This document shows, one piece after another, positions 19,264 to 51,211 of a stretch of DNA of 64,000 nucleotides. How positions within the stretch are numbered: position 1 is the stretch's first letter; each line of letters starts with the position of its first letter. The stretch comes from a virus, in IMG/VR virus record IMGVR_UViG_3300035142_000030, positions 12,722-76,721 of that record, one strand, 5' to 3'. The position numbers and the translations under genes are program-made. A model generated the notes under the pieces. It made no database searches. It had not been told where the DNA came from and was given only the letters and a program-made list of their open reading frames with translations.

Positions 19264-19355
19264 TGTCCCGTTTAGAGGTATATCCCGAAATAAAAAAAAA
19301 ACTCGTAGAGTTTTGGGGGTACGGGATGGGTTGTGGGAATACCGAGCAAGCAATG

Positions 19356-19431
19356 GTTTATAACACAGCGGGATTTATGGGACGGTTTGGGGCTTTTGCC
19401 CCAAAATGGACTATGAAATCACAGTTAGGCA
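19356..19431. repeat. attC-like site (array 1, site 2)
   Basis: GTTTATAACACAGCGGGATTTATGGGACGGTTTGGGGC-TTTT-GCCCCAAAATGGACTATGAAATCACAGTTAGGCA; extra G on the sense strand. Confidence 0.75.
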
Positions 19432-19445
19432 TAAAATTTTTTGAT

Positions 19446-19646
19446 ATGGAATTTATAGTAGAATTAGAAGAAGGTGTTTATTTGGCTACTTGGTCTGGCG
19501 ACCCTGGGCGAACACTAAAGATTGAAAACGCACAAGTATTTGTCCGCGATAAAGATGCTGATAATGCTCTTGTTAGAGCCAGATATTATAGACCATTTAA
19601 GTATGCCAAAGTGCGAAGGCAAAAGGAAGGGTTGCGAAGCAGCTAA
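19446..19646 (+). CDS. Hypothetical cassette protein (MEFIVELEEG...)
   Basis: Likely true start is 19446, since the upstream part of the track ORF is repeat DNA; bounded by 13-bp IR 19424-19436/19660-19672. Confidence 0.6.
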   Translation: MEFIVELEEGVYLATWSGDPGRTLKIENAQVFVRDKDADNALVRARYYRPFKYAKVRRQKEGLRSS

Positions 19647-19664
19647 GGATGGGGGGGATTTTTA

Positions 19665-19760
19665 TGCCTAACGGTTTGGCTATGTTTAGTAGCCTAACCA
19701 CTAACTTTGAAATATTTACTAAATTTGCATAGGCTATTAAATATAGCTTTTGTTATAAAC
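19665..19760. repeat. attC-like site (array 1, site 3)
   Basis: TGCCTAACGGTTTGGCTATGTTTAGTAGCCTA ... TAGGCTATTAAATATAGCTTTTGTTATAAAC. Confidence 0.8.
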
Positions 19761-32819: not shown

Positions 32820-33289
32820 AATAATAAATTTTTATTGGTTATTAATTCTAATATATATTTGTACTGCTCTCAGCGCAACAATTTATAACTACGTATAAAT
32901 TCAAAAACCATGTGATAAGCTCATAAACTTTAAGATTACTCCGTAATCCAGTTTCTGAACTTATACGTTTGAACGTTAGGCTCAATCGCTTGCACTCCTT
33001 CCCTCATTTAAAATTGTATCAATTTGTTATTTTAAATGCTAAAATATCAACAGTTAATCGGATTTAATACGGTTAATTGCTTATATTTAAACAATTTTAA
33101 ATTCCATCCTTACAACCCTCAAAATGCCAAATATTATTTTGCCTAACAATTTGGAAAATAAGCCTTCACACAAGTCCTTTAACGTCTCTTCTATCTGTTG
33201 CATTTTACCTAATATTACAATGCCTAACTAGTAAATAAAGTCCATAAAAATCAAAACTCTGTGTTTATAAAAAATAAAACCACCGCACA

Positions 33290-33586: not shown

Positions 33587-33637
33587 CTCTTTTTATTTTT
33601 CCGTCAAACATATTTTTAATTTTTCATAACGTTCAAA

Positions 33638-35379: not shown

Positions 35380-35545
35380 GCCGTAAATTTTACATACCGC
35401 TAACAAGCGGTCATAGTTAATAAAGCCAATTAAGTTTAGTTCGTTGTAGGTTGCGGTAGTGGGTGGCTTTACTAACCATACCGCATCTACGTTACAGACA
35501 ATTGCCCGCACGGCATTCCGCACGGGCTATCGCTCACAACCCACT

Positions 35546-35902
35546 CTAAATTTTGTTTAGAATTTGTTCCAACGCCCAATACTCTGGATTTGCAAGAGCA
35601 GTAACTACATTATTAATATCACAAATACTAATAATCAGCCAAATACATAAAATGATTGCAAGTATAACAATTGCAATCCAATGTCCAACTTCAGTATCAT
35701 TATCATAGCATTTTTGATAATTTTTAGCAAACCATTTTATGTATCGCACATATGGTATAATTAAGAGAAAAGAAATAATGATTAAGGTAATTCCCACAAA
35801 TGCATCAATAGGTGCTTGCTTAATCATAACTCCCCACAAGTATTCGGTCGTTGTACCAAGCTTACTTGCTAAGCTTTCTAATAATGTTGTTAATTCATTC
35901 AT
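35546..35902 (-). CDS. Membrane protein (cassette)
   Basis: LASKLGTTTEYLWGVMIKQA, two TM segments, NPEYWAL; bounded by a 14-bp IR. Confidence 0.7.
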   Translation of the reverse strand: MNELTTLLESLASKLGTTTEYLWGVMIKQAPIDAFVGITLIIISFLLIIPYVRYIKWFAKNYQKCYDNDTEVGHWIAIVILAIILCIWLIISICDINNVVTALANPEYWALEQILNKI

Positions 35903-36280
35903 TTTAATATAATTTAGTTAAACAAAATTTTCTAATGTCAATTGTCTGTAACAGTCGCCTAAATACAGCATTCGTCGCAGCTTCGTATCAAATTGGTTCA
36001 TATCGTATTGAAACCCTAAGGCAACTATCTGTAACTACTAAATACAAGCCAGCGAGACAAGCTCGCCATCGTGTATTTAGGCGACTGTTAGATTCCATAC
36101 TCCCACGGCATTCCCACAAACCCCGCTACGCCCCACCGCACAAAAACCATCGTATGAAATCTAATGGTACGGCAAGTAGTACCACTCGCTCAATACCATT
36201 TACGTATCTGAATCTTATTACTTCCTCCAACGTACAGAATCTAACTGTCAAGTCAGAGGAAAGTAATTTTAGAACTCATT

Positions 36281-36505
36281 CTAAACAATACGTTTACAGC
36301 TTAATTCCCAATGTACTTGTTCGGCAACTTTTAATCTACGAACTGAACTTTTTCCAGTTTCAGGTAATTTGCCTTCATTTAACCATAATAATATCATTTG
36401 TATAAAGTTGCCTGCTGGCAATTCTACTTTTTGACCTTTACCATCTATATAATAAACTGTATCAGTCAATTCGCTGTAAACTAATTCTTTTTTTTGCTCA
36501 ATCAT
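36281..36505 (-). CDS. Hypothetical protein within hairpin loop
   Basis: 74 aa ORF between inner arm (36242) and right arm (36537-36572). Confidence 0.6.
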   Translation of the reverse strand: MIEQKKELVYSELTDTVYYIDGKGQKVELPAGNFIQMILLWLNEGKLPETGKSSVRRLKVAEQVHWELSCKRIV

Positions 36506-36675
36506 TTCTATATAATTTTATCTGTTAATAAACAATGTTCTAAAATTCCCATCCACTACTTGCCGTACCATTGTAACTCAATTGACAGCTCTCCATCCGC
36601 ACAAGGCTTCCCATCCGCCCCGCAAAATACCAAAGCAATTGAGTTACAACGCTCGGAGTTCATTCGATGTAAAAA

Positions 36676-36930
36676 TTATGAAACACCGAGTTTATGAGCT
36701 TCTTCATCAAATGCAATTTTTATATTTGTAATTTCAGTTTGAATTTCTAATAAAAGTTCATGAAATTCTTGTTGCTTATCTTCAATTTGTTTGTCAGCAA
36801 ATTGCATTTTTGAAATTATGTTCTCCTTATAAGCATAAGCAGAGTTCAAATCATTTTTTAATTTTGTGTGCTTAGCTTTAAGAACATCAAGTCTATTTAA
36901 GTAATTACCATACTGTTCTTGAAAATTCAT
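36676..36930 (-). CDS. Coiled-coil hypothetical protein between outer and inner arms
   Basis: 84 aa ORF. Confidence 0.6.
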   Translation of the reverse strand: MNFQEQYGNYLNRLDVLKAKHTKLKNDLNSAYAYKENIISKMQFADKQIEDKQQEFHELLLEIQTEITNIKIAFDEEAHKLGVS

Positions 36931-37121
36931 AATTTTTACCTTTCTATATTTAAGTTTATAATGTTCGATACGTCACAGCGTACAACTACGTGTAATGCAG
37001 AATTGCTACAATCGAATGATGCCGATTTACGGCTTTACTTTGCCTTGCGGCAAATCGCCGCAACTCAGCATACACTCCGAGCGTTATGCGTAAAAATACC
37101 CGCATCCTAGTTCGCTAACGC

Positions 37122-37217
37122 TCACCCATCCGCATCCTCCCACTTATCAATATACAATTTTAGCTTATAAATAAGTATTCCTATTACAATTCCGATTCCT
37201 ATTAATATTAAATTCAT
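37122..37217 (-). CDS. 31-aa membrane peptide cassette (MNLILIGIGIVIGILIYKLKLYIDKWEDADG)
   Basis: Only ORF within the 16-bp IR 37083-37098/37225-37240. Confidence 0.5.
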   Translation of the reverse strand: MNLILIGIGIVIGILIYKLKLYIDKWEDADG

Positions 37218-37374
37218 ATCCAAATATTTTTACGCATAACACCAGAGAAAATATACCGTCCCGCAGGAGACGTTCTCCAGTATCTGCAAGTTTATATTCC
37301 TAATATTTCTACTCATAACTAAAAAATCATAGCACATTAAAATCAAAACTCTGTGTTTAATAAAATAAAGCCAA

Positions 37375-37725
37375 TTAATATATATTCTTTCTACCCCTGT
37401 CAGCGTGCAATGGTACTAAATGATCACACGAACCGCAAAAATGTTTAGCTTTAGTCTCCCAGTAAATTCCTTCAGAATGTGTATCAAAAAGCGAATTACA
37501 ATTGCTACACATCTCAATATGGTCTGGTAGTAAAGGAAAATGTTCTTGTAAATAATAAATTATTGCAAACGCTTTTTTAGCTGTCATCTTTGGCTGATGC
37601 CCACGCTTAAAAGAAAGTTGTTCAGGTAATTCACCTTGTAAAAAATTGTAAAATTCTTCTATCCATTCAAGGTCTGTATCAATCCTCTGATCATTATTTT
37701 TAAGCAATTTTATTTCATTGTACAT
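37375..37725 (-). CDS. Zn-finger hypothetical protein within hairpin loop
   Basis: CSNC ... CGSC; enclosed by TAAAATAAAGCC/GGCTTTATTTTA IR. Confidence 0.65.
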   Translation of the reverse strand: MYNEIKLLKNNDQRIDTDLEWIEEFYNFLQGELPEQLSFKRGHQPKMTAKKAFAIIYYLQEHFPLLPDHIEMCSNCNSLFDTHSEGIYWETKAKHFCGSCDHLVPLHADRGRKNIY

Positions 37726-37865
37726 AAGGCTTTATTTTTAATTAGTACTAAATTTATAATCATATTTTACCTGTAATTTCATCAAGTTTCAATCAATGTT
37801 TTAATTTTACCGTCCCATATTTTCTCTGGTGTTAGAAAACATGCCGTTTCGAACGGACGCAAAAA

Positions 37866-38147
37866 TCATTTTGCTTTCTTATATTTAGAGCCTTTACTAT
37901 TACAAAAATCACATATTGCATTGTTAGGTTTGTTAGATATACATGAACTGCAAAATTTCCATTTTTGCTCATGTTTTCTAACGGTTTCACGTTCGTTTGA
38001 TATTAAAATTTGATTGATAAAGTCATTCAATTGGACTATAGCGTATTCAACAGACAACATATCTAATGTGTCTTCATCTCCAATTGTATCAAGTCTATCC
38101 ATTAATATCTTACGTATTCCATCAGTATAATCTTTTTTATGTTTCAT
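37866..38147 (-). CDS. Hypothetical protein reading through a repeat arm
   Basis: NERETVRKHE is encoded by outer arm 37970-37992; Cys-rich tail. Confidence 0.55.
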   Translation of the reverse strand: MKHKKDYTDGIRKILMDRLDTIGDEDTLDMLSVEYAIVQLNDFINQILISNERETVRKHEQKWKFCSSCISNKPNNAICDFCNSKGSKYKKAK

Positions 38148-38320
38148 AATATCAAATTTTAATTATTAATACTAATTTAGTTTATCAATTCTCAACGTCA
38201 CGATTTTCTAACCAACGTTTATGCTTAATTAAAGCTATCAAACGATGCTCCGTTAAAGCTTTTCTTGCGTTTCACGCAACCGCTTTAACAAAGCATACAC
38301 GTGAAACCGTTAGAGTGCAT

Positions 38321-38608
38321 TTAATCCAAGTGAATAAGCATTTCTCCCCACGCACTTCTACCTTTCACTTTCGGTAGTGATGTGTAGTGTAGTGTCATTC
38401 CTGTAAATTCACACTCTTTGTTATTTAAACTTTTTTTAACCATCCAGTCTTTTGCTTCTTTCCTTATAATATCATCTTCATTGTTTCGATGCCAGCCCAC
38501 GCTAATTATCAAATTACCAATTCTAATTTTACTAAGTGAAAAACGCACTCTAACAATAGATAAAATCCATTGCTTAAAATGTGCTAATTCGTTACGTAAG
38601 TATTTCAT
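38321..38608 (-). CDS. Hypothetical cassette protein starting inside the repeat
   Basis: MKYLRNELAHFKQWILSIVRVR is homologous to the N-terminus of 18377. Confidence 0.6.
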   Translation of the reverse strand: MKYLRNELAHFKQWILSIVRVRFSLSKIRIGNLIISVGWHRNNEDDIIRKEAKDWMVKKSLNNKECEFTGMTLHYTSLPKVKGRSAWGEMLIHLD

Positions 38609-38764
38609 ATCAATGTTTTTATAAGTTTGAAAATTCAGTTCATTAAATCGCAACGTATCTTATCAGAGCCGTTGCACACAATGCCCCATCTAGGGGACGT
38701 GCGACTCGCTATCGCTCCTGTCGCACTCATTGTGTGCAACAGTTTGGCGTTAGCTTGTAAATAA

Positions 38765-38941
38765 TTATTCGCTCAGTACTTCTAAACTATAAGATGATAC
38801 ATAATCAATCTTTTTACCAACTATTACAACTGCATACGGTATATCATCAGCTCCCCGCACGTATCCATCAATGTATCCAACATCTCCAACCTTAAACATC
38901 ATATGTTGGTATTCTTTAATAATTTTAACTTTTGTCTTCAT
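38765..38941 (-). CDS. 58-aa hypothetical protein (MKTKVKIIKEYQH...GYIDGYVRGADDIPYAVV)
   Basis: Clean ORF between duplicated TGTGCAAC cores; below the track size cutoff. Confidence 0.55.
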   Translation of the reverse strand: MKTKVKIIKEYQHMMFKVGDVGYIDGYVRGADDIPYAVVIVGKKIDYVSSYSLEVLSE

Positions 38942-38976
38942 AATTATTTATTTAGTTATTTGTTAATTTCTGCTTA

Positions 38977-39147
38977 CTAGATGGTGCACAATGTGCAACT
39001 AGCGTTTATGCGTAATTGTAATAGGCAATTTCCAATCTCCCAGTAACTTGCGCCTAAACGTTCCAATATCATTTCAGCTTTCTCAAAGCTCCAACTTTTA
39101 TAACATTGATAAAAGTTCCCTTTATAGGTATACATTATATGAATCAT
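38977..39147 (-). CDS. Hypothetical protein ending in a repeat arm
   Basis: MIHIMYTYKG...LGASYWEIG; tail QLRINASCT is encoded by the arm. Confidence 0.5.
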   Translation of the reverse strand: MIHIMYTYKGNFYQCYKSWSFEKAEMILERLGASYWEIGNCLLQLRINASCTLCTI

Positions 39148-39532
39148 AATTTTATATTTAAAGTTTGTACTAAATTTTAACAATACCCTAAAAATCCTTC
39201 CCATATCTTTCGGAGTGTTATGGCTCAATTTCGCTACGCTCTACGATGACTTCATTTAATTGAGCCATAACGAGACAACGTATGAAGTACAGGCTCAGTG
39301 TACTATATTAATTCTATTTTAATTTATCCGCTCAACTAGAGCATAACTACATATAAGCGTAATACTATGAGCCTTACTTCAAAGCTCTCAGAATATTTCA
39401 CCGATAAAAATCGGCTCATATTCCTACGCTTATACGTTGTCTCGTTAGTAGCAAGCGGGTTCAGTTCTCGTATCAAACATTGTGCGTATTTGAAAGAAAA
39501 AGAAAAGCCCCGCCCGCTTTTGGCAAAGCCAA

Positions 39533-49105: not shown

Positions 49106-49255
49106 CCCTAACGCCTTAAAGCGTAAACTCCGTTACATGGAGAACGTAGTTCGGGAATGTAACGAGTTTAAAATGCTGTAATGGAGTTTACGCATAGTTA
49201 CAAACCGTGCCAATGGCACAAAGATTATTAGAATGTTGAACTTAAAATAAATTTT

Positions 49256-49405
49256 ATGAAACGTTTATGTAAAATGAAACCATATTATGTAATACCAAGA
49301 GTATTTTATATATATGCTGGCTATACTGGATTAGATAATGGATTAGCAATAGGTTGGCTTGGCAGAATGTTTATTATAATTATTCCTGTTAATGAAAGGG
49401 AATAA
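49256..49405 (+). CDS. 49-aa hypothetical peptide between inner and outer arms
   Basis: MKRLCKMKPYYVIPRVFYIYAG...LAIGWLGRMFIIII. Confidence 0.45.
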   Translation: MKRLCKMKPYYVIPRVFYIYAGYTGLDNGLAIGWLGRMFIIIIPVNERE

Positions 49406-49744
49406 AATTTATGCATTTTAGCTTTAAGGCGTTACAAAACCATAGGCAAACAGTGGAAACGGTGAGCGAAGCGAATAAGTTTCGTTTGCCGTGCCTCGAT
49501 GGCATGGTTTTGTAACGTACGTGTATACGCCTGTTGGTATGATTATTAATAGTATAAACTTAAATTAATAAATAATAAAATTACGTAAATTCGCAAAAAT
49601 AATAAAGACAACGAAAACAGATTTGCAGAAATGATAATACCCAGAAAAGATATTGATATAATAATTAAGAGACAAAGATCAATATTATAACAAAGTGTTA
49701 ATCAAAAATTGAATGAATAATAAACGTATTAAATATATAATATT

Positions 49745-49960: not shown

Positions 49961-50134
49961 ATGGTAACAAGCGACAATTATTACGAAAAGAAAATTAAAA
50001 ACAGTATTGGGAAAAGATTCACACAAAAAGAAGCAATTGAATTTGAAAGAGAAATGATTAATTCCCCAACTGGCACTAACAATTATACATGGTTTGATAG
50101 TAAAACAAAACAGCCAATTGCGTTTAATTATTGA
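49961..50134 (+). CDS. 57-aa hypothetical protein
   Basis: MVTSDNYYEKK...; ends just before the 50136 site. Confidence 0.4.
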   Translation: MVTSDNYYEKKIKNSIGKRFTQKEAIEFEREMINSPTGTNNYTWFDSKTKQPIAFNY

Positions 50135-50230
50135 GCGGTAACGGTGGCAATAAGATTAAGCGTAGCGACCCGTAGGGTTAATTTTATTGCGTGTTATACA
50201 CTAGCACGAATTATTACTAAAGATGATTAA

Positions 50231-51211
50231 ATGAACGAAAGTAGCAATAACAGTTTTTTGAGCGTTGGTGGAAAAGCCGAAGGGATAAATGTAGTAAGTA
50301 TGTTTGATGGTGCAAGCTGTGGACAAATAGCTTTAGAAAAAGCAAAAGTAATGGTAAAAAATTATGTTGCTTCTGAAATAAAGCCACATGCTATAGTAAC
50401 ATCTAAATTACATTACCCAAACACTATACATGTTGGAGATGTTAGATACTTGCATGTAGTAAATACGGGTGTTGAAGTTAATATTAATAGAGCACAATAT
50501 AGAACAATAGGAATTGGATTAATTGATTTAATAATCGGTGGTAGCCCCTGCAAAGGGATAAGCAGATTAAACAAAAATCAAGAAGGGTTAAAGCACAAGG
50601 AAAGTATTTTATTTTGGGAGTTTGTGAGGGTTTTAGAACAAGCTAAACTGTGTAACCCAGATGTATATTTTTTACTTGAAAATACGCACGGAAATAAAGA
50701 AGCAACTCAAATAATAACTGAGACATTAGGCGTTAAACCTATTAGCATTAACAGTAAACTTGTTACAGCACAAAATAGACCTAGATACTATTGGACAAAT
50801 ATACCAGGCATTGAGCAACCAAAAGACAAAGGAATAACGACCAACGATGTTTTTAAATACAACGGGGACATAGTAGATGATTGTAGGGTAAAATGGCTTA
50901 ATAACGATAGTGGTAAAAACTCTGTAAAAAAAGGATACACAAGAATAAACCCTTACCCTAAAAGTGGTTGCTTAACTGCCAATGGACATAAAAAATGGAA
51001 CGAGAATTATTTGTATAAAGATGGTGTGTACAGATATTTATCTAAAGAAGAGCTAGAGGTATTGCAAACATTTCCAATTGGATATACAAAACATTTAAGT
51101 TATGATGATGCTTATGATTTAATTGGCGAGGCTTGGACGATTGATATTATAGCACATATATTTTCTTATTTGCCGATAGGCAAAAGAGGGGGAGAAAAAG
51201 ATGTATGTTAA
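50231..51211 (+). CDS. dcm: C5 cytosine DNA methyltransferase
   Basis: SMFDG (motif I), GGSPC (IV), FLLEN (VI), QNRPRYYW (VIII). Confidence 0.9.
   Translation: MNESSNNSFLSVGGKAEGINVVSMFDGASCGQIALEKAKVMVKNYVASEIKPHAIVTSKLHYPNTIHVGDVRYLHVVNTGVEVNINRAQYRTIGIGLIDLIIGGSPCKGISRLNKNQEGLKHKESILFWEFVRVLEQAKLCNPDVYFLLENTHGNKEATQIITETLGVKPISINSKLVTAQNRPRYYWTNIPGIEQPKDKGITTNDVFKYNGDIVDDCRVKWLNNDSGKNSVKKGYTRINPYPKSGCLTANGHKKWNENYLYKDGVYRYLSKEELEVLQTFPIGYTKHLSYDDAYDLIGEAWTIDIIAHIFSYLPIGKRGGEKDVC

Follow-up and report, generated by a model that had tools for sequence, protein, structure and literature searches.

The gene cassettes studied here belong to an integrase-less, integron-like array of the CALIN type, and the feature that is new in comparison with known cassette sites is an additional, perfectly complementary outer arm. 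The window is a stretch of 64,000 nucleotides from a complete phage genome of 76.7 kb that carries a row of such cassettes. At each double-arm site one arm (arm B) has two competing partners, an inner arm with imperfect attC-like pairing and the outer arm; both pairings, first noticed in a sequence-only reading, were found in the sequence. The best explanation we can offer, tentatively and at somewhat less than an even chance, is that the second arms arose by templated copying and keep the cassettes frozen as a constitutive mask, rather than serving as a regulated switch.

An AAC/GTT core (GTTA/TAAC) was present at every cassette junction. The array is assigned to CALIN because it has at least two attC-type sites and lacks a neighboring integron integrase; the sites were classed independently of the standard attC covariance model. 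Since no intI adjoins the array in this phage, it is not a complete integron. A profile search of the complete 76.7-kb genome with TIGR02249 and PF00589 produced zero matches at E-values up to 1, and among the tested families, serine and tyrosine recombinases included, no recombinase was found encoded in the phage genome. Integrase-less attC clusters are known from virulent phages (PMC9892861). The cassettes start after G/TT with bases complementary to those before their own AAC, forming perfect 13-16-nt GTTA.../...TAAC stems. Between 32.5 and 40 kb, eight core-anchored perfect stems of at least 11 nt enclose AAC...GTT, seven enclose GTT...AAC, and two more have their pairing flanks outside the cores, away from the loop, while shuffles of this interval gave at most 0.3 such core-anchored stems. 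The stems of the array interlock in a gapless chain, with junctions of 25-30 nt that are wholly complementary to both neighbors.

A link to true integrons is provided by a cassette with a 118-aa gene. The stem that closes it pairs the left arm at 35491-35504, where the GTTA core comes first, with 35939-35952 (14 bp, perfect). Homologs of this gene were found in arrays adjoining true integron integrases (TIGR02249 scores of 412.7 and 270.8 bits; cut-off 265), and the integrase-linked arrays L057 and L005 show the same perfect end complementarity over 11-13 nt (GTT.../...AAC). In a Bacteroidota MAG, a homolog of the 118-aa gene is located between two GTTATAAC double cores.

Evidence of recombination at a core comes from one junction. 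The related phage contig L084, with 88% amino acid identity in the neighboring gene, is 78% identical to our phage up to the TAAC at 39444-39447, after which identity falls to the background of 53-56%; at the breakpoint L084 has a different, compact bulged hairpin. The core at 39444-39447 is a recombination breakpoint, and at this one junction the crossover is placed in the AAC/GTT triplet, as in attC.

All seven arm pairs listed in the sequence-only reading proved to be perfect inverted repeats of 12-19 bp. For site E, the full pair is 37977-37992/38299-38314 (16 bp), which contains the 14 bp given earlier (37979-37992/38299-38312). In the region 35401-39500 we counted 16 perfect inverted repeats of at least 12 nt, 10 of at least 14 nt and 6 of at least 16 nt, compared to means of 0.45, 0.045 and 0, respectively, in 200 dinucleotide shuffles. 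The 24 stems add up to 326 perfect bp with zero mismatches and no G-T continuation at the stem ends; the segments between the repeats are 27-560 bp long. Some arms lie inside ORFs.

Site A starts within the 29-nt junction J1 (35939-35967). The left 14 nt of J1 pair with 35491-35504, the right 19 (35949-35967) make the outer arm of site A, and both share a common TAAC core. Arm B (36072-36090), built of a stem, a 6-nt bulge strand and GTTA, pairs perfectly with the outer arm over 19 bp. The inner arm (36032-36048; TAAC, then TA, then a 9-nt stem) is situated 83 nt from the outer core. At site B, the outer arm at 36163-36180 with the variant core AAT forms an 18-bp perfect stem with arm B at 36555-36572, where the core is ATT. 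The inner arm (36238-36275, with the core AAC at 36243) is an imperfect complement of 36537-36562, and a 74-aa gene is inside both folds. Adjacent is a gene-less unit (36571-36649), where a perfect stem of 14 bp closes a 51-nt loop rich in G on the gene-sense strand.

Site C has a contiguous tail at 36648-36682. It is composed of the outer arm (36648-36659, pairing over 12 bp with arm B at 37074-37085), an extension (36660-36668, pairing with 37011-37019) and a block over the stop codon (36669-36682, pairing with 36926-36939). The inner arm at 36984-37006 reads AAC, TAC and a stem with one extra base; arm B carries a 7-nt bulge strand and GTT. The gene-less unit at 37083-37240 follows, with a 16-bp perfect GTTA...TAAC stem and the loop motifs GGATGGG and GAGCGTTAGCGA. 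At site D, the outer arm (37237-37254) pairs perfectly over 18 bp with arm B (37817-37834), the weak inner arm (37316-37349) is 79 nt from the outer core, and a 116-aa gene is inside both folds. A 9-nt direct repeat occurs within both arms of this site. The next unit, at 37831-37982, has a 13-bp perfect GTTA...TAAC stem and a 126-nt loop.

The contiguous tail of site E (37977-38014) has the same order: the outer arm, an extension at 37993-38002 pairing with 38236-38245, and a block at 38002-38014 pairing with 38151-38163. Its inner arm (38207-38235) consists of TCTAAC, CA and a 12-nt stem with one mismatch, and arm B (38299-38314) has a 6-nt bulge strand followed by GTTAGA. A gene-less unit at 39217-39271 (14-bp perfect GTTA...TAAC stem, 27-nt loop with GAGCGTAGCGA) leads to site F, where the outer arm (39268-39283) and arm B (39432-39447) pair perfectly over 16 bp and the inner arm (39344-39373) lies 76 nt from the outer core; the GTTA core of arm B is the point where homology with L084 ends. 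In the array-3 site the genes are on the plus strand. Here, arm B (49109-49122) is followed by the inner arm (49177-49200) and by a tail (49402-49434) with a stop-codon block (49402-49412), an extension and the outer arm (49421-49434; 14 bp perfect with arm B). The attC-like hairpin Z (32888-32978) reads TAAC, T and stem on one side, and stem, TTGAAC and GTTA on the other; its bulge strand plus core finds a perfect complement of 11 nt at 33627-33637, with a 98-aa gene in between.

The inner arms pair imperfectly in an attC-like manner, as had been proposed, with scores far above shuffles at four sites (z of 4.9 for B, 6.5 for E, 7.4 for F and 7.6 for the array-3 site; none of 200 shuffles reached any of them) and weaker scores for C and D (z of 1.8 each, reached by 16 and 14 of the 200 shuffles, respectively). 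The inner arm of site A was read straight from the sequence. The inner arm is laid out as AAC, 1-3 nt and stem, and arm B as stem, 6-8 nt and GTT. The R-box pairing of canonical attC, 5'-AAC-3' with 5'-GTT-3', is seen in the inner hairpins of A, C, E, F, Z and the array-3 site, while arm B of site B has ATT. The canonical unpaired central spacer has about 5-6 nt on each arm (PMC5027507); all double-arm sites deviate from it, with 6-8 vs. 1-3 nt. A site of the related array L074 has 5 vs. 2 nt on the two arms. Inner hairpins of about 60-115 nt are within the attC length range of 57-141 nt, which the outer folds (142-598 nt) exceed. We looked for the extrahelical G in L'' and the T 6 bp away, which in canonical attC lie on one arm and determine strand choice, and found single mismatches and bulges at inconsistent positions; in the integrase-linked sites of L057, the 3' arm (gene-sense strand) has two bulges of a single base each.

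The outer arm exactly complements a stretch made up of the core, the entire spacer and 2-9 bases at the beginning of the stem. It is also specific to its site: over the core-adjoining bases, outer arms match their own arm B by 9 of 9 Watson-Crick pairs in seven sites, compared to a mean of 2.7 of 9 against other sites. The spacers are unrelated in sequence, yet the leaders of C and E are homologous (in part also those of F, Z and the array-3 site); the outer arm follows the hypervariable 6-8-nt bulge across homologous (paralogous) sites in this genome. Site B shows the co-varied core that had been reported, with AAT in the outer arm matched by a compensatory ATT in arm B; the inner arm still has AAC. 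An absence of covariation between outer arm and arm B had been named beforehand as evidence against the two-fold architecture; since covariation is present across homologous sites within this genome, this objection does not apply.

Spacing and neighboring sequence also agreed with the sequence-only reading. The outer-to-inner distance of 76-83 nt, claimed for five gene-less cases, was measured as 83 nt (A), 80 nt (B), 79 nt (D), 76 nt (F) and 81 nt (33145/33226), the last with a duplicated core and no perfect partner within the window. The bases adjoining the outer arm complement the inner arm or loop in all three cases quoted, where the chance of a perfect 9-mer complement in a given 160-nt stretch of the region is about 0.008. 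The tails of C, E and the array-3 site are contiguous (33-38 nt), have the outer arm at the end, and pair with three separate leader blocks that are 47-54 nt and 69-72 nt apart. Site F has the outer arm and one extension, spanning a 51-nt hairpin. The skipped 47-54-nt pieces self-fold, with the two ends pairing in E, F and the array-3 site. Start/stop blocks were observed in seven array genes; in three of the seven they include the start codon and pair with the stop-codon region.

Sharp stem edges and the lack of wobble pairs suggest templated DNA copying. The second arms are sharp-edged blocks of inverted DNA identity and were most likely made when the site, on a folded single strand, was copied by templated fold-back or template switching. 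Template switching is known to make perfect stems with compensatory changes in a single event (PMC8794818, PMC10710096). At three sites, one contiguous 33-38-nt tail would have copied three leader blocks, with the intervening hairpins probably skipped during copying. On the other hand, this model leaves unexplained the constant 76-83-nt spacing of the gene-less cases and the 9-nt direct repeat in both arms of site D.

The same observations could be read as a neutral footprint. In this view, template switching, or core-specific recombination that happened repeatedly, would have left arms, extensions and start/stop blocks behind as by-products in a hairpin-rich region; they would serve no function, and their perfection would reflect only their youth. 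Template switching makes just such sharp, perfect blocks free of wobble pairs (PMC8794818), and some of the arms fall within ORFs. No outer arms were found in the readable related arrays L084, L074, L057 and L005; therefore, there is no orthologous conservation to show selection, and the arms could be neutral by-products. Yet at least eight independent sites share one design (core, whole bulge and a few bases), the geometry recurs (76-83 nt; 47-54 and 69-72 nt), and zero mismatches in 326 bp, while the inner arms of the same sites diverged, are hard to square with random unselected events. We consider this reading unlikely, though it is the rival that deserves the most weight.

A mask would work as follows. 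In a single-stranded unit, the second arm would bind the unpaired spacer and displace the short canonical arm; the unit, either a gene-less piece of 140-190 nt or a whole gene, would zip into a panhandle with a fully paired AAC/GTT box at its base. Cassettes would thereby be frozen in a phage without its own recombinase. Folding of the single-stranded DNA gave probabilities of 0.93-0.99 for the outer pairs and 0-0.02 for the inner pairs. Forcing the inner fold at sites A, C, E and the array-3 site, with both arms single-stranded, was 10-20 kcal/mol worse on either strand. These are equilibrium calculations for naked DNA that ignore SSB, replication order and proteins. Given the dominance of the outer fold, we interpret the outer arm as masking the site constitutively and not as a switch; the attC-like inner fold is predicted to be a transient or local state only.

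The sequence-only reading had proposed a site with two alternating folds, one attC-like and active, the other perfect and locked. Two mutually exclusive partners speak for such a regulated switch (at site E almost all segments could pair with a second partner), and strand displacement could readily begin at the 6-8 nt of unpaired spacer. The term "locked" is a fair analogy, since pairing of the central spacer makes an attC a poor substrate of IntI, with strongly lowered recombination (PMC5027507), an effect established for IntI only; by this analogy the paired form is probably inactive for the putative enzyme acting here. The switching itself is unsupported: ssDNA folding puts the equilibrium wholly on the outer fold, and we found no trigger, ligand or protein. 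Moreover, in the gene-less cases the outer arm is just 76-83 nt away and would be exposed together with the site. We judge regulated switching to be improbable.

Equally improbable in our estimate is that the double-arm units are snapshots of cassette birth, in which snap-back copying wraps a gene into a recombination-ready cassette. A single strand ending at the stop codon would fold back, anneal to the start region and leader of the same gene, and be extended as far as the cleaved AAC core, which would write the perfect second arm beyond the gene. If true, this would provide a concrete mechanism for the origin of integron cassettes and attC sites, a long-open question.

Slightly less credible again is the view that the perfect fold is the active one, and that the bulged inner hairpins are relics. 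With both neighboring stems formed, each junction would become a fully paired box of 26-30 bp with AAC/GTT in the middle, which would mimic a double-stranded dif-like site for a putative Xer-type recombinase of the host or of a co-infecting phage; for such an enzyme the fully paired stem could be the substrate. The 25-30-nt junctions, fully complementary to both neighbors, fit this idea, as does the outer core being a better partner of the cassette's other end than the inner core (10/10 vs. 8/10 in A, 13 vs. about 10 in E). Against it, sites of the same class in L084 and L074 use bulged hairpins without perfect arms, and the phage encodes no Xer-type enzyme.

A structure acting in RNA has about the same low standing. 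The mRNA tail would pair with the leader and the start-codon region, and the resulting panhandle would control translation, processing or stability. The gene-sense strand carries all the motifs and is the one that folds better, and the gene-hugging blocks that include a start codon and pair with the stop-codon region (three of seven) hint at a role in mRNA. Still, the 326 bp have no G-U pairs and sharp edges, gene-less units share the architecture, and both the conserved AAC/GTT cores and the loss of homology at one of them are features at the level of DNA. An Rfam search returned tRNAs only, with no known RNA family for the sites. Terminator-like sites numbered 6 vs. 2.9 expected, with none after an inner hairpin. 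The tRNA-only Rfam result, the lack of a terminator after the inner hairpin and the lack of G-U pairs all speak against an RNA switch or attenuator.

Invertible segments (invertons or a shufflon), each with its own inverted repeat, are suggested by perfect inverted repeats flanking 27-560-bp segments and are hardly credible, since neither a serine nor a tyrosine recombinase is present as an invertase, each repeat pair is unique and would limit a common protein site to 4 nt, double-strand inversion needs longer loops than the 27-51 bp found in some units, and genes and motifs all have one orientation in an assembly that is of one form (contigs only).

For bacteria, and apparently for their phages too, integron-type cassette arrays are among the main ways to trade small accessory genes. 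A natural arm tailored to its site, whose reach is exactly the unpaired spacer plus the crossover triplet and which is the predicted winner in folding, would provide a built-in means to freeze or license a cassette. The sharp-edged block copies offer a testable mechanism for making arms, perhaps whole sites. Even as mere by-products, the arms would be a sign that recombination hairpins in phage genomes are strongly mutated by template switching.

The claim that canonical integrons lack such an architecture held in the literature searched, where no paper found describes the double-arm add-on. The nearest known systems differ in several respects. The promoter-stem-loop (PeSL) cassettes of T4-type phages, reportedly described by Arbiol et al. 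in 2010, are said to have conserved direct repeats carrying a promoter. They resemble our array in that small accessory genes are bounded by structured elements with a proposed role in shuffling; the arms here, however, are unique per unit, inverted and anchored in AAC/GTT. Template-switch hairpins (Monttinen and Loytynoja 2022, PMC8794818; PMC10710096) likewise combine a perfect new arm, compensatory changes and sharp edges in one copying event, but were described from RNA genes and miRNAs of cellular genomes, not from recombination sites or phage cassettes. In the attC mutants with paired spacers (VCR2; Bouvier 2009, Nivina 2016, PMC5027507), as in our outer fold, exactly the canonically unpaired spacer is paired; those are engineered single hairpins, whereas here a natural separate arm is 76-560 nt away. 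Another close likeness is to Polaribacter phage P12002L (Qi et al. 2023, PMC9892861), also a phage without an integrase, with a row of small genes, site-specific imperfect AAC/GTT hairpins, complementary cassette ends and a homologous cassette gene that occurs in true integrons. In contrast to P12002L, most sites of our array carry a further arm as a perfect partner, the two sides of the bulge are very unequal (6-8 vs. 1-3 nt instead of 5-6 per arm), genes can sit within the hairpin, and the stems form a gapless interlocked chain.

Each double-arm recombination site combines a shared arm (arm B) with two partners, an imperfect attC-like inner arm and an outer arm that the sequence-only reading had described as the exact complement of arm B. 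Every pair named there was indeed a perfect inverted repeat, with outer arm and arm B at 35949-35967/36072-36090 (site A), 36163-36180/36555-36572 (B), 36648-36659/37074-37085 (C), 37237-37254/37817-37834 (D), 37977-37992/38299-38314 (E), 39268-39283/39432-39447 (F) and 49421-49434/49109-49122 (the array-3 site). Between positions 35401 and 39500 we found 16 perfect inverted repeats of at least 12 nt, compared to 0.45 in dinucleotide shuffles, and six of at least 16 nt, compared to none in 200 shuffles. The imperfect inner arms were real at sites B, E and F and at the array-3 site (z 4.9-7.6) and clear by direct reading at A; those of C and D were weaker (z 1.8). The inner arm always had the form AAC, 1-3 nt, stem, and arm B the form stem, 6-8 nt, GTT. 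The outer-to-inner spacing of 76-83 claimed for gene-less units also held, the five core-to-core distances being 83, 80, 79, 76 and 81 nt; for the fifth (33145/33226, 81 nt) a perfect partner was absent within the window. This spacing was constant across the gene-less cases, and genes, where present, occupied different slots. The complementarities that had been noticed between sequence beside the outer arms and the inner arms or loops were likewise present.

Abutting perfect stems formed a gapless chain in two stretches, 35491-38554 and 39217-39447. Every junction of the chain was a GTTA or TAAC core whose left flank paired with the previous junction and whose right flank paired with the next one; therefore, each TAAC junction is the exact reverse complement of the circle-excision joint predicted between the two flanking GTTA cores. 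The core-anchored perfect stems of at least 11 nt in the 32.5-40 kb region included eight running AAC...GTT, which are the outer arm/arm B pairs, seven running GTT...AAC, and two whose paired flanks sat beyond the cores as seen from the loop (shuffles gave at most 0.3). At two junctions (36568-36577 and 36643-36650) the cores stood back to back, ATTGTAAC and GTTACAAC, forming zero-length units between two hairpin units, comparable to GTTATAAC in the array of a Bacteroidota MAG (L074). At site D, each 18-bp arm was directly adjoined on its loop side by one copy of a 9-nt direct repeat (TACCGTCCC; 37254-37262 and 37808-37816). The repeat resembles a target duplication left by an insertion into what was once the loop of a small perfect hairpin.

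Gene-less units had in common the motifs GAGCG(W)TAGCGA, GGATGGG and GGAATRCCG, which are G-rich on the gene-sense strand. Such units were located at 36087-36165, 36577-36638, 37094-37149, 38684-38727, 39231-39257, 35505-35530, 19304-19405, 19604-19668, 49459-49503 and 50133-50172; within the three arrays the motifs were on the gene-sense strand in all cases. At site B, the 74-aa gene had GGATGGG on one side and a GAGCG-like word on the other, as if this gene had entered a motif-bearing loop. The 98-aa and 116-aa cassettes had about 35 nt of homology just downstream of the stop codon, inner arm included (33250-33285 and 37338-37372), although the genes themselves differ.

The source record (76,721 bases, GC about 30%), of which the window covers bases 12722-76721, is a virus entry of IMG/VR that has direct terminal repeats and is rated complete. 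It carries structural genes, two HNH endonucleases and one C5 methylase; ARAGORN predicted five tRNAs, and there were five Rfam tRNA matches, one of them at another place. The double-arm sites sit within a block of small minus-strand genes. Neither a near relative nor a protein-level match was found in the phage collection. The sole sequencing run containing the phage was a wetland metagenome (DNA, kept as contigs), probably its source sample, and one contig of this assembly spanned the region with zero joints and zero variants, contigs being uninformative on excision or expression. No RNA run containing the phage was found.

By three lines of evidence from sequence comparison, the GTTA/TAAC cores are the predicted crossover points of an integron-type recombination system. 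A related phage contig (L084, Ga0316187_10293222), whose neighbouring gene was 88% identical in protein to that of the window, ran collinear with the window as far as the TAAC core at 39444-39447, the final 120 nt being 78% identical and the final 30 matching at 26 positions. Past this core, identity was at background (53-56%) and the genes were different. At the breakpoint (L084:925-932) there was a different compact bulged hairpin with 6-nt and 5-nt spacers, a 13/14-nt stem and a 7-nt loop.

The 118-aa cassette gene (35546-35902) had 66 relatives in viral contigs, two of which, in L057 (IMGVR_UViG_3300049489_000585) and L005, adjoined genes scoring 412.7 and 270.8 bits with the NCBIfam integron-integrase model (cut-off 265 bits). 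These IMG/VR 'viral' contigs with a true integron integrase and an array holding the 118-aa homologue (L057 with L071:1447-2544, L005 with L072:1177-2127) had array genes with perfect 11-13-nt GTT.../...AAC ends and attC hairpins of about 60 nt between them. Therefore, the GTT...AAC stems of the window are ordinary cassette-end complementarity, only longer. We also observed that the cassette genes of L057 were on the same strand as intI and pointed towards it, and that its attC sites had single-base bulges on the 3' arm of the gene-sense strand, which places the genes on the strand resembling the recombining bottom strand. In the MAG (JBAXXB010000011.1), the 118-aa homologue was positioned between two GTTATAAC double cores, and its array showed the asymmetric bulge again (5 vs 2 nt), together with G-T pairs on the gene-sense strand. 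This same-style array (L074:2800-4820), with its double cores and GTTA.../...TAAC stems of 10-16 nt, had ORFs that begin within a hairpin and extend across an arm. The MAG is incomplete, and none of its genes passed the integron-integrase model.

Perfect AAC...GTT stems were absent from both integrase-linked arrays, where only the GTT...AAC cassette-end stems were perfect, and the density of perfect repeats was 0.15 per kb across 66 related loci compared to 3.9 per kb here. Therefore, the outer arm is an addition. Viral-contig relatives reached through a 204-aa neighbour gene and a 599-aa ORF (L001-L003) had no such repeats, and zero relatives were found for the 116-aa and 84-aa cassette genes. 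The added arm was specific to its site: across seven sites, the nine core-adjacent outer-arm bases matched their own arm B at 9/9 positions, compared to a mean of 2.7/9 for the arms of other sites. The leaders of C and E were clearly homologous, and F, the array-3 site and the attC-like hairpin at 32888-32978 had a stem motif in common; the 6-8-nt spacers of these five were unrelated, and each outer arm tracked its own spacer. Two positions distinguished the extension block of C from that of E, with matching differences in their partners, and at site B the core read AAT (outer arm) and ATT (arm B), with AAC retained in the inner arm. Covariation of the outer arm with arm B, proposed earlier as a check, was found in this way between paralogous sites of this single genome; no orthologous double-arm sites were found.

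Folded with DNA parameters, all tested units were more stable on the gene-sense strand. With the outer arm included, P was 0.93-0.99 for the outer pairs and 0-0.02 for the inner ones, and imposing the inner fold cost 10-20 kcal/mol at A, C, E and the array-3 site. When the outer arm was left out, the inner hairpin was complete only in E and partial in A and F. The outer arm can bind first to precisely the 6-8 bases that the canonical fold leaves unpaired. We tentatively propose, with a little less than even confidence, that the double-arm sites may be attC-like and belong to a cassette array without an integrase, each with a masking arm that is self-made, specific to its site and constitutive. 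In ssDNA, the outer arm would close the unit, often with its gene enclosed, as a panhandle whose AAC/GTT box is fully paired. Recombination of integrons drops strongly when the central spacer is paired (PMC5027507), and by analogy the cassettes would be frozen by the paired spacer.

The outer arms of C, E and the array-3 site each ended a contiguous 33-38-nt stretch at the gene 3' end, in the order of a stop-codon-overlapping block, an extension and the outer arm. This tail paired perfectly with three separate blocks of the approximately 150-nt leader (the start-codon region, a 9-10-nt block and the base of arm B), which were 69-72 nt and 47-54 nt apart. The skipped 47-54-nt leader pieces self-fold, their two ends pairing in E, F and the array-3 site; site F had the outer arm and one extension, across a 51-nt hairpin. 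Seven array genes had a perfect 11-14-nt AT-rich inverted repeat between the region just upstream of the start codon and the stop-codon region (35548-35559/35919-35930, 36265-36275/36537-36547, 36669-36682/36926-36939, 37362-37372/37728-37738, 38002-38014/38151-38163, 38758-38768/38940-38950 and 49247-49257/49402-49412), including the start codon itself in three of the seven. Among about 20 genes outside the arrays, no such block of at least 10 nt was found (there was one 9-nt match). A 93-aa ORF (37866-38147) ran through the outer arm of site E into the next unit, and the block at 38002-38014 suggests that this gene originally ended there and was later fused or extended.

Helices selected as RNA are expected to have wobble pairs and frayed ends, and templated copying gives blocks of exact inverted identity. 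The 24 stems observed here amounted to 326 perfect bp, with abrupt edges, unpaired next positions and no G-T run. Perfect new stems and one-step compensatory changes are known to arise by template switching (PMC8794818, PMC10710096). We infer that a strand may have been copied from the folded leader, with the hairpins skipped and the end flush at the core. An origin of both arms by tandem duplication was rejected, similarity being limited to the arms themselves. The stems could, on the same evidence of exact copying, be young neutral footprints of template switching, which we regard as rather unlikely.

The sequence-only reading had suggested a conformational switch between an active attC-like fold and a locked perfect fold. 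In the folding models the two folds are real alternatives with a one-sided equilibrium, and a true, regulated switch is improbable. Slightly less probable still is that the perfect stem, dominant in those models, is the real substrate of a Xer-type enzyme. The phage encodes no tyrosine recombinase, no serine recombinase/invertase and no Y1 (IS200/IS605-type HUH) transposase. We give an equally low rating to a role at the mRNA level, which pairing of start and stop regions might suggest; the stems had no G-T run, and Rfam returned tRNAs only. A sigma-70 promoter scan was not usefully above shuffles. That the inverted arms bound invertible segments is highly improbable with no invertase encoded. 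The unique, inverted arms also led us to reject PeSL-type repeats.

The array to which we assign the masking arm is CALIN-like by definition, a CALIN being an integrase-less attC cluster. A C5 cytosine DNA methyltransferase gene (50231-51211) directly follows array 3, and methyltransferases are the most often reported cargo of phage CALINs. The literature searched held no description of a second perfect partner arm, of interlocking chains or of genes inside a hairpin. Already known are the structure of attC and the presence of CALINs in phages, which have been reported from virulent phages (PMC9892861).
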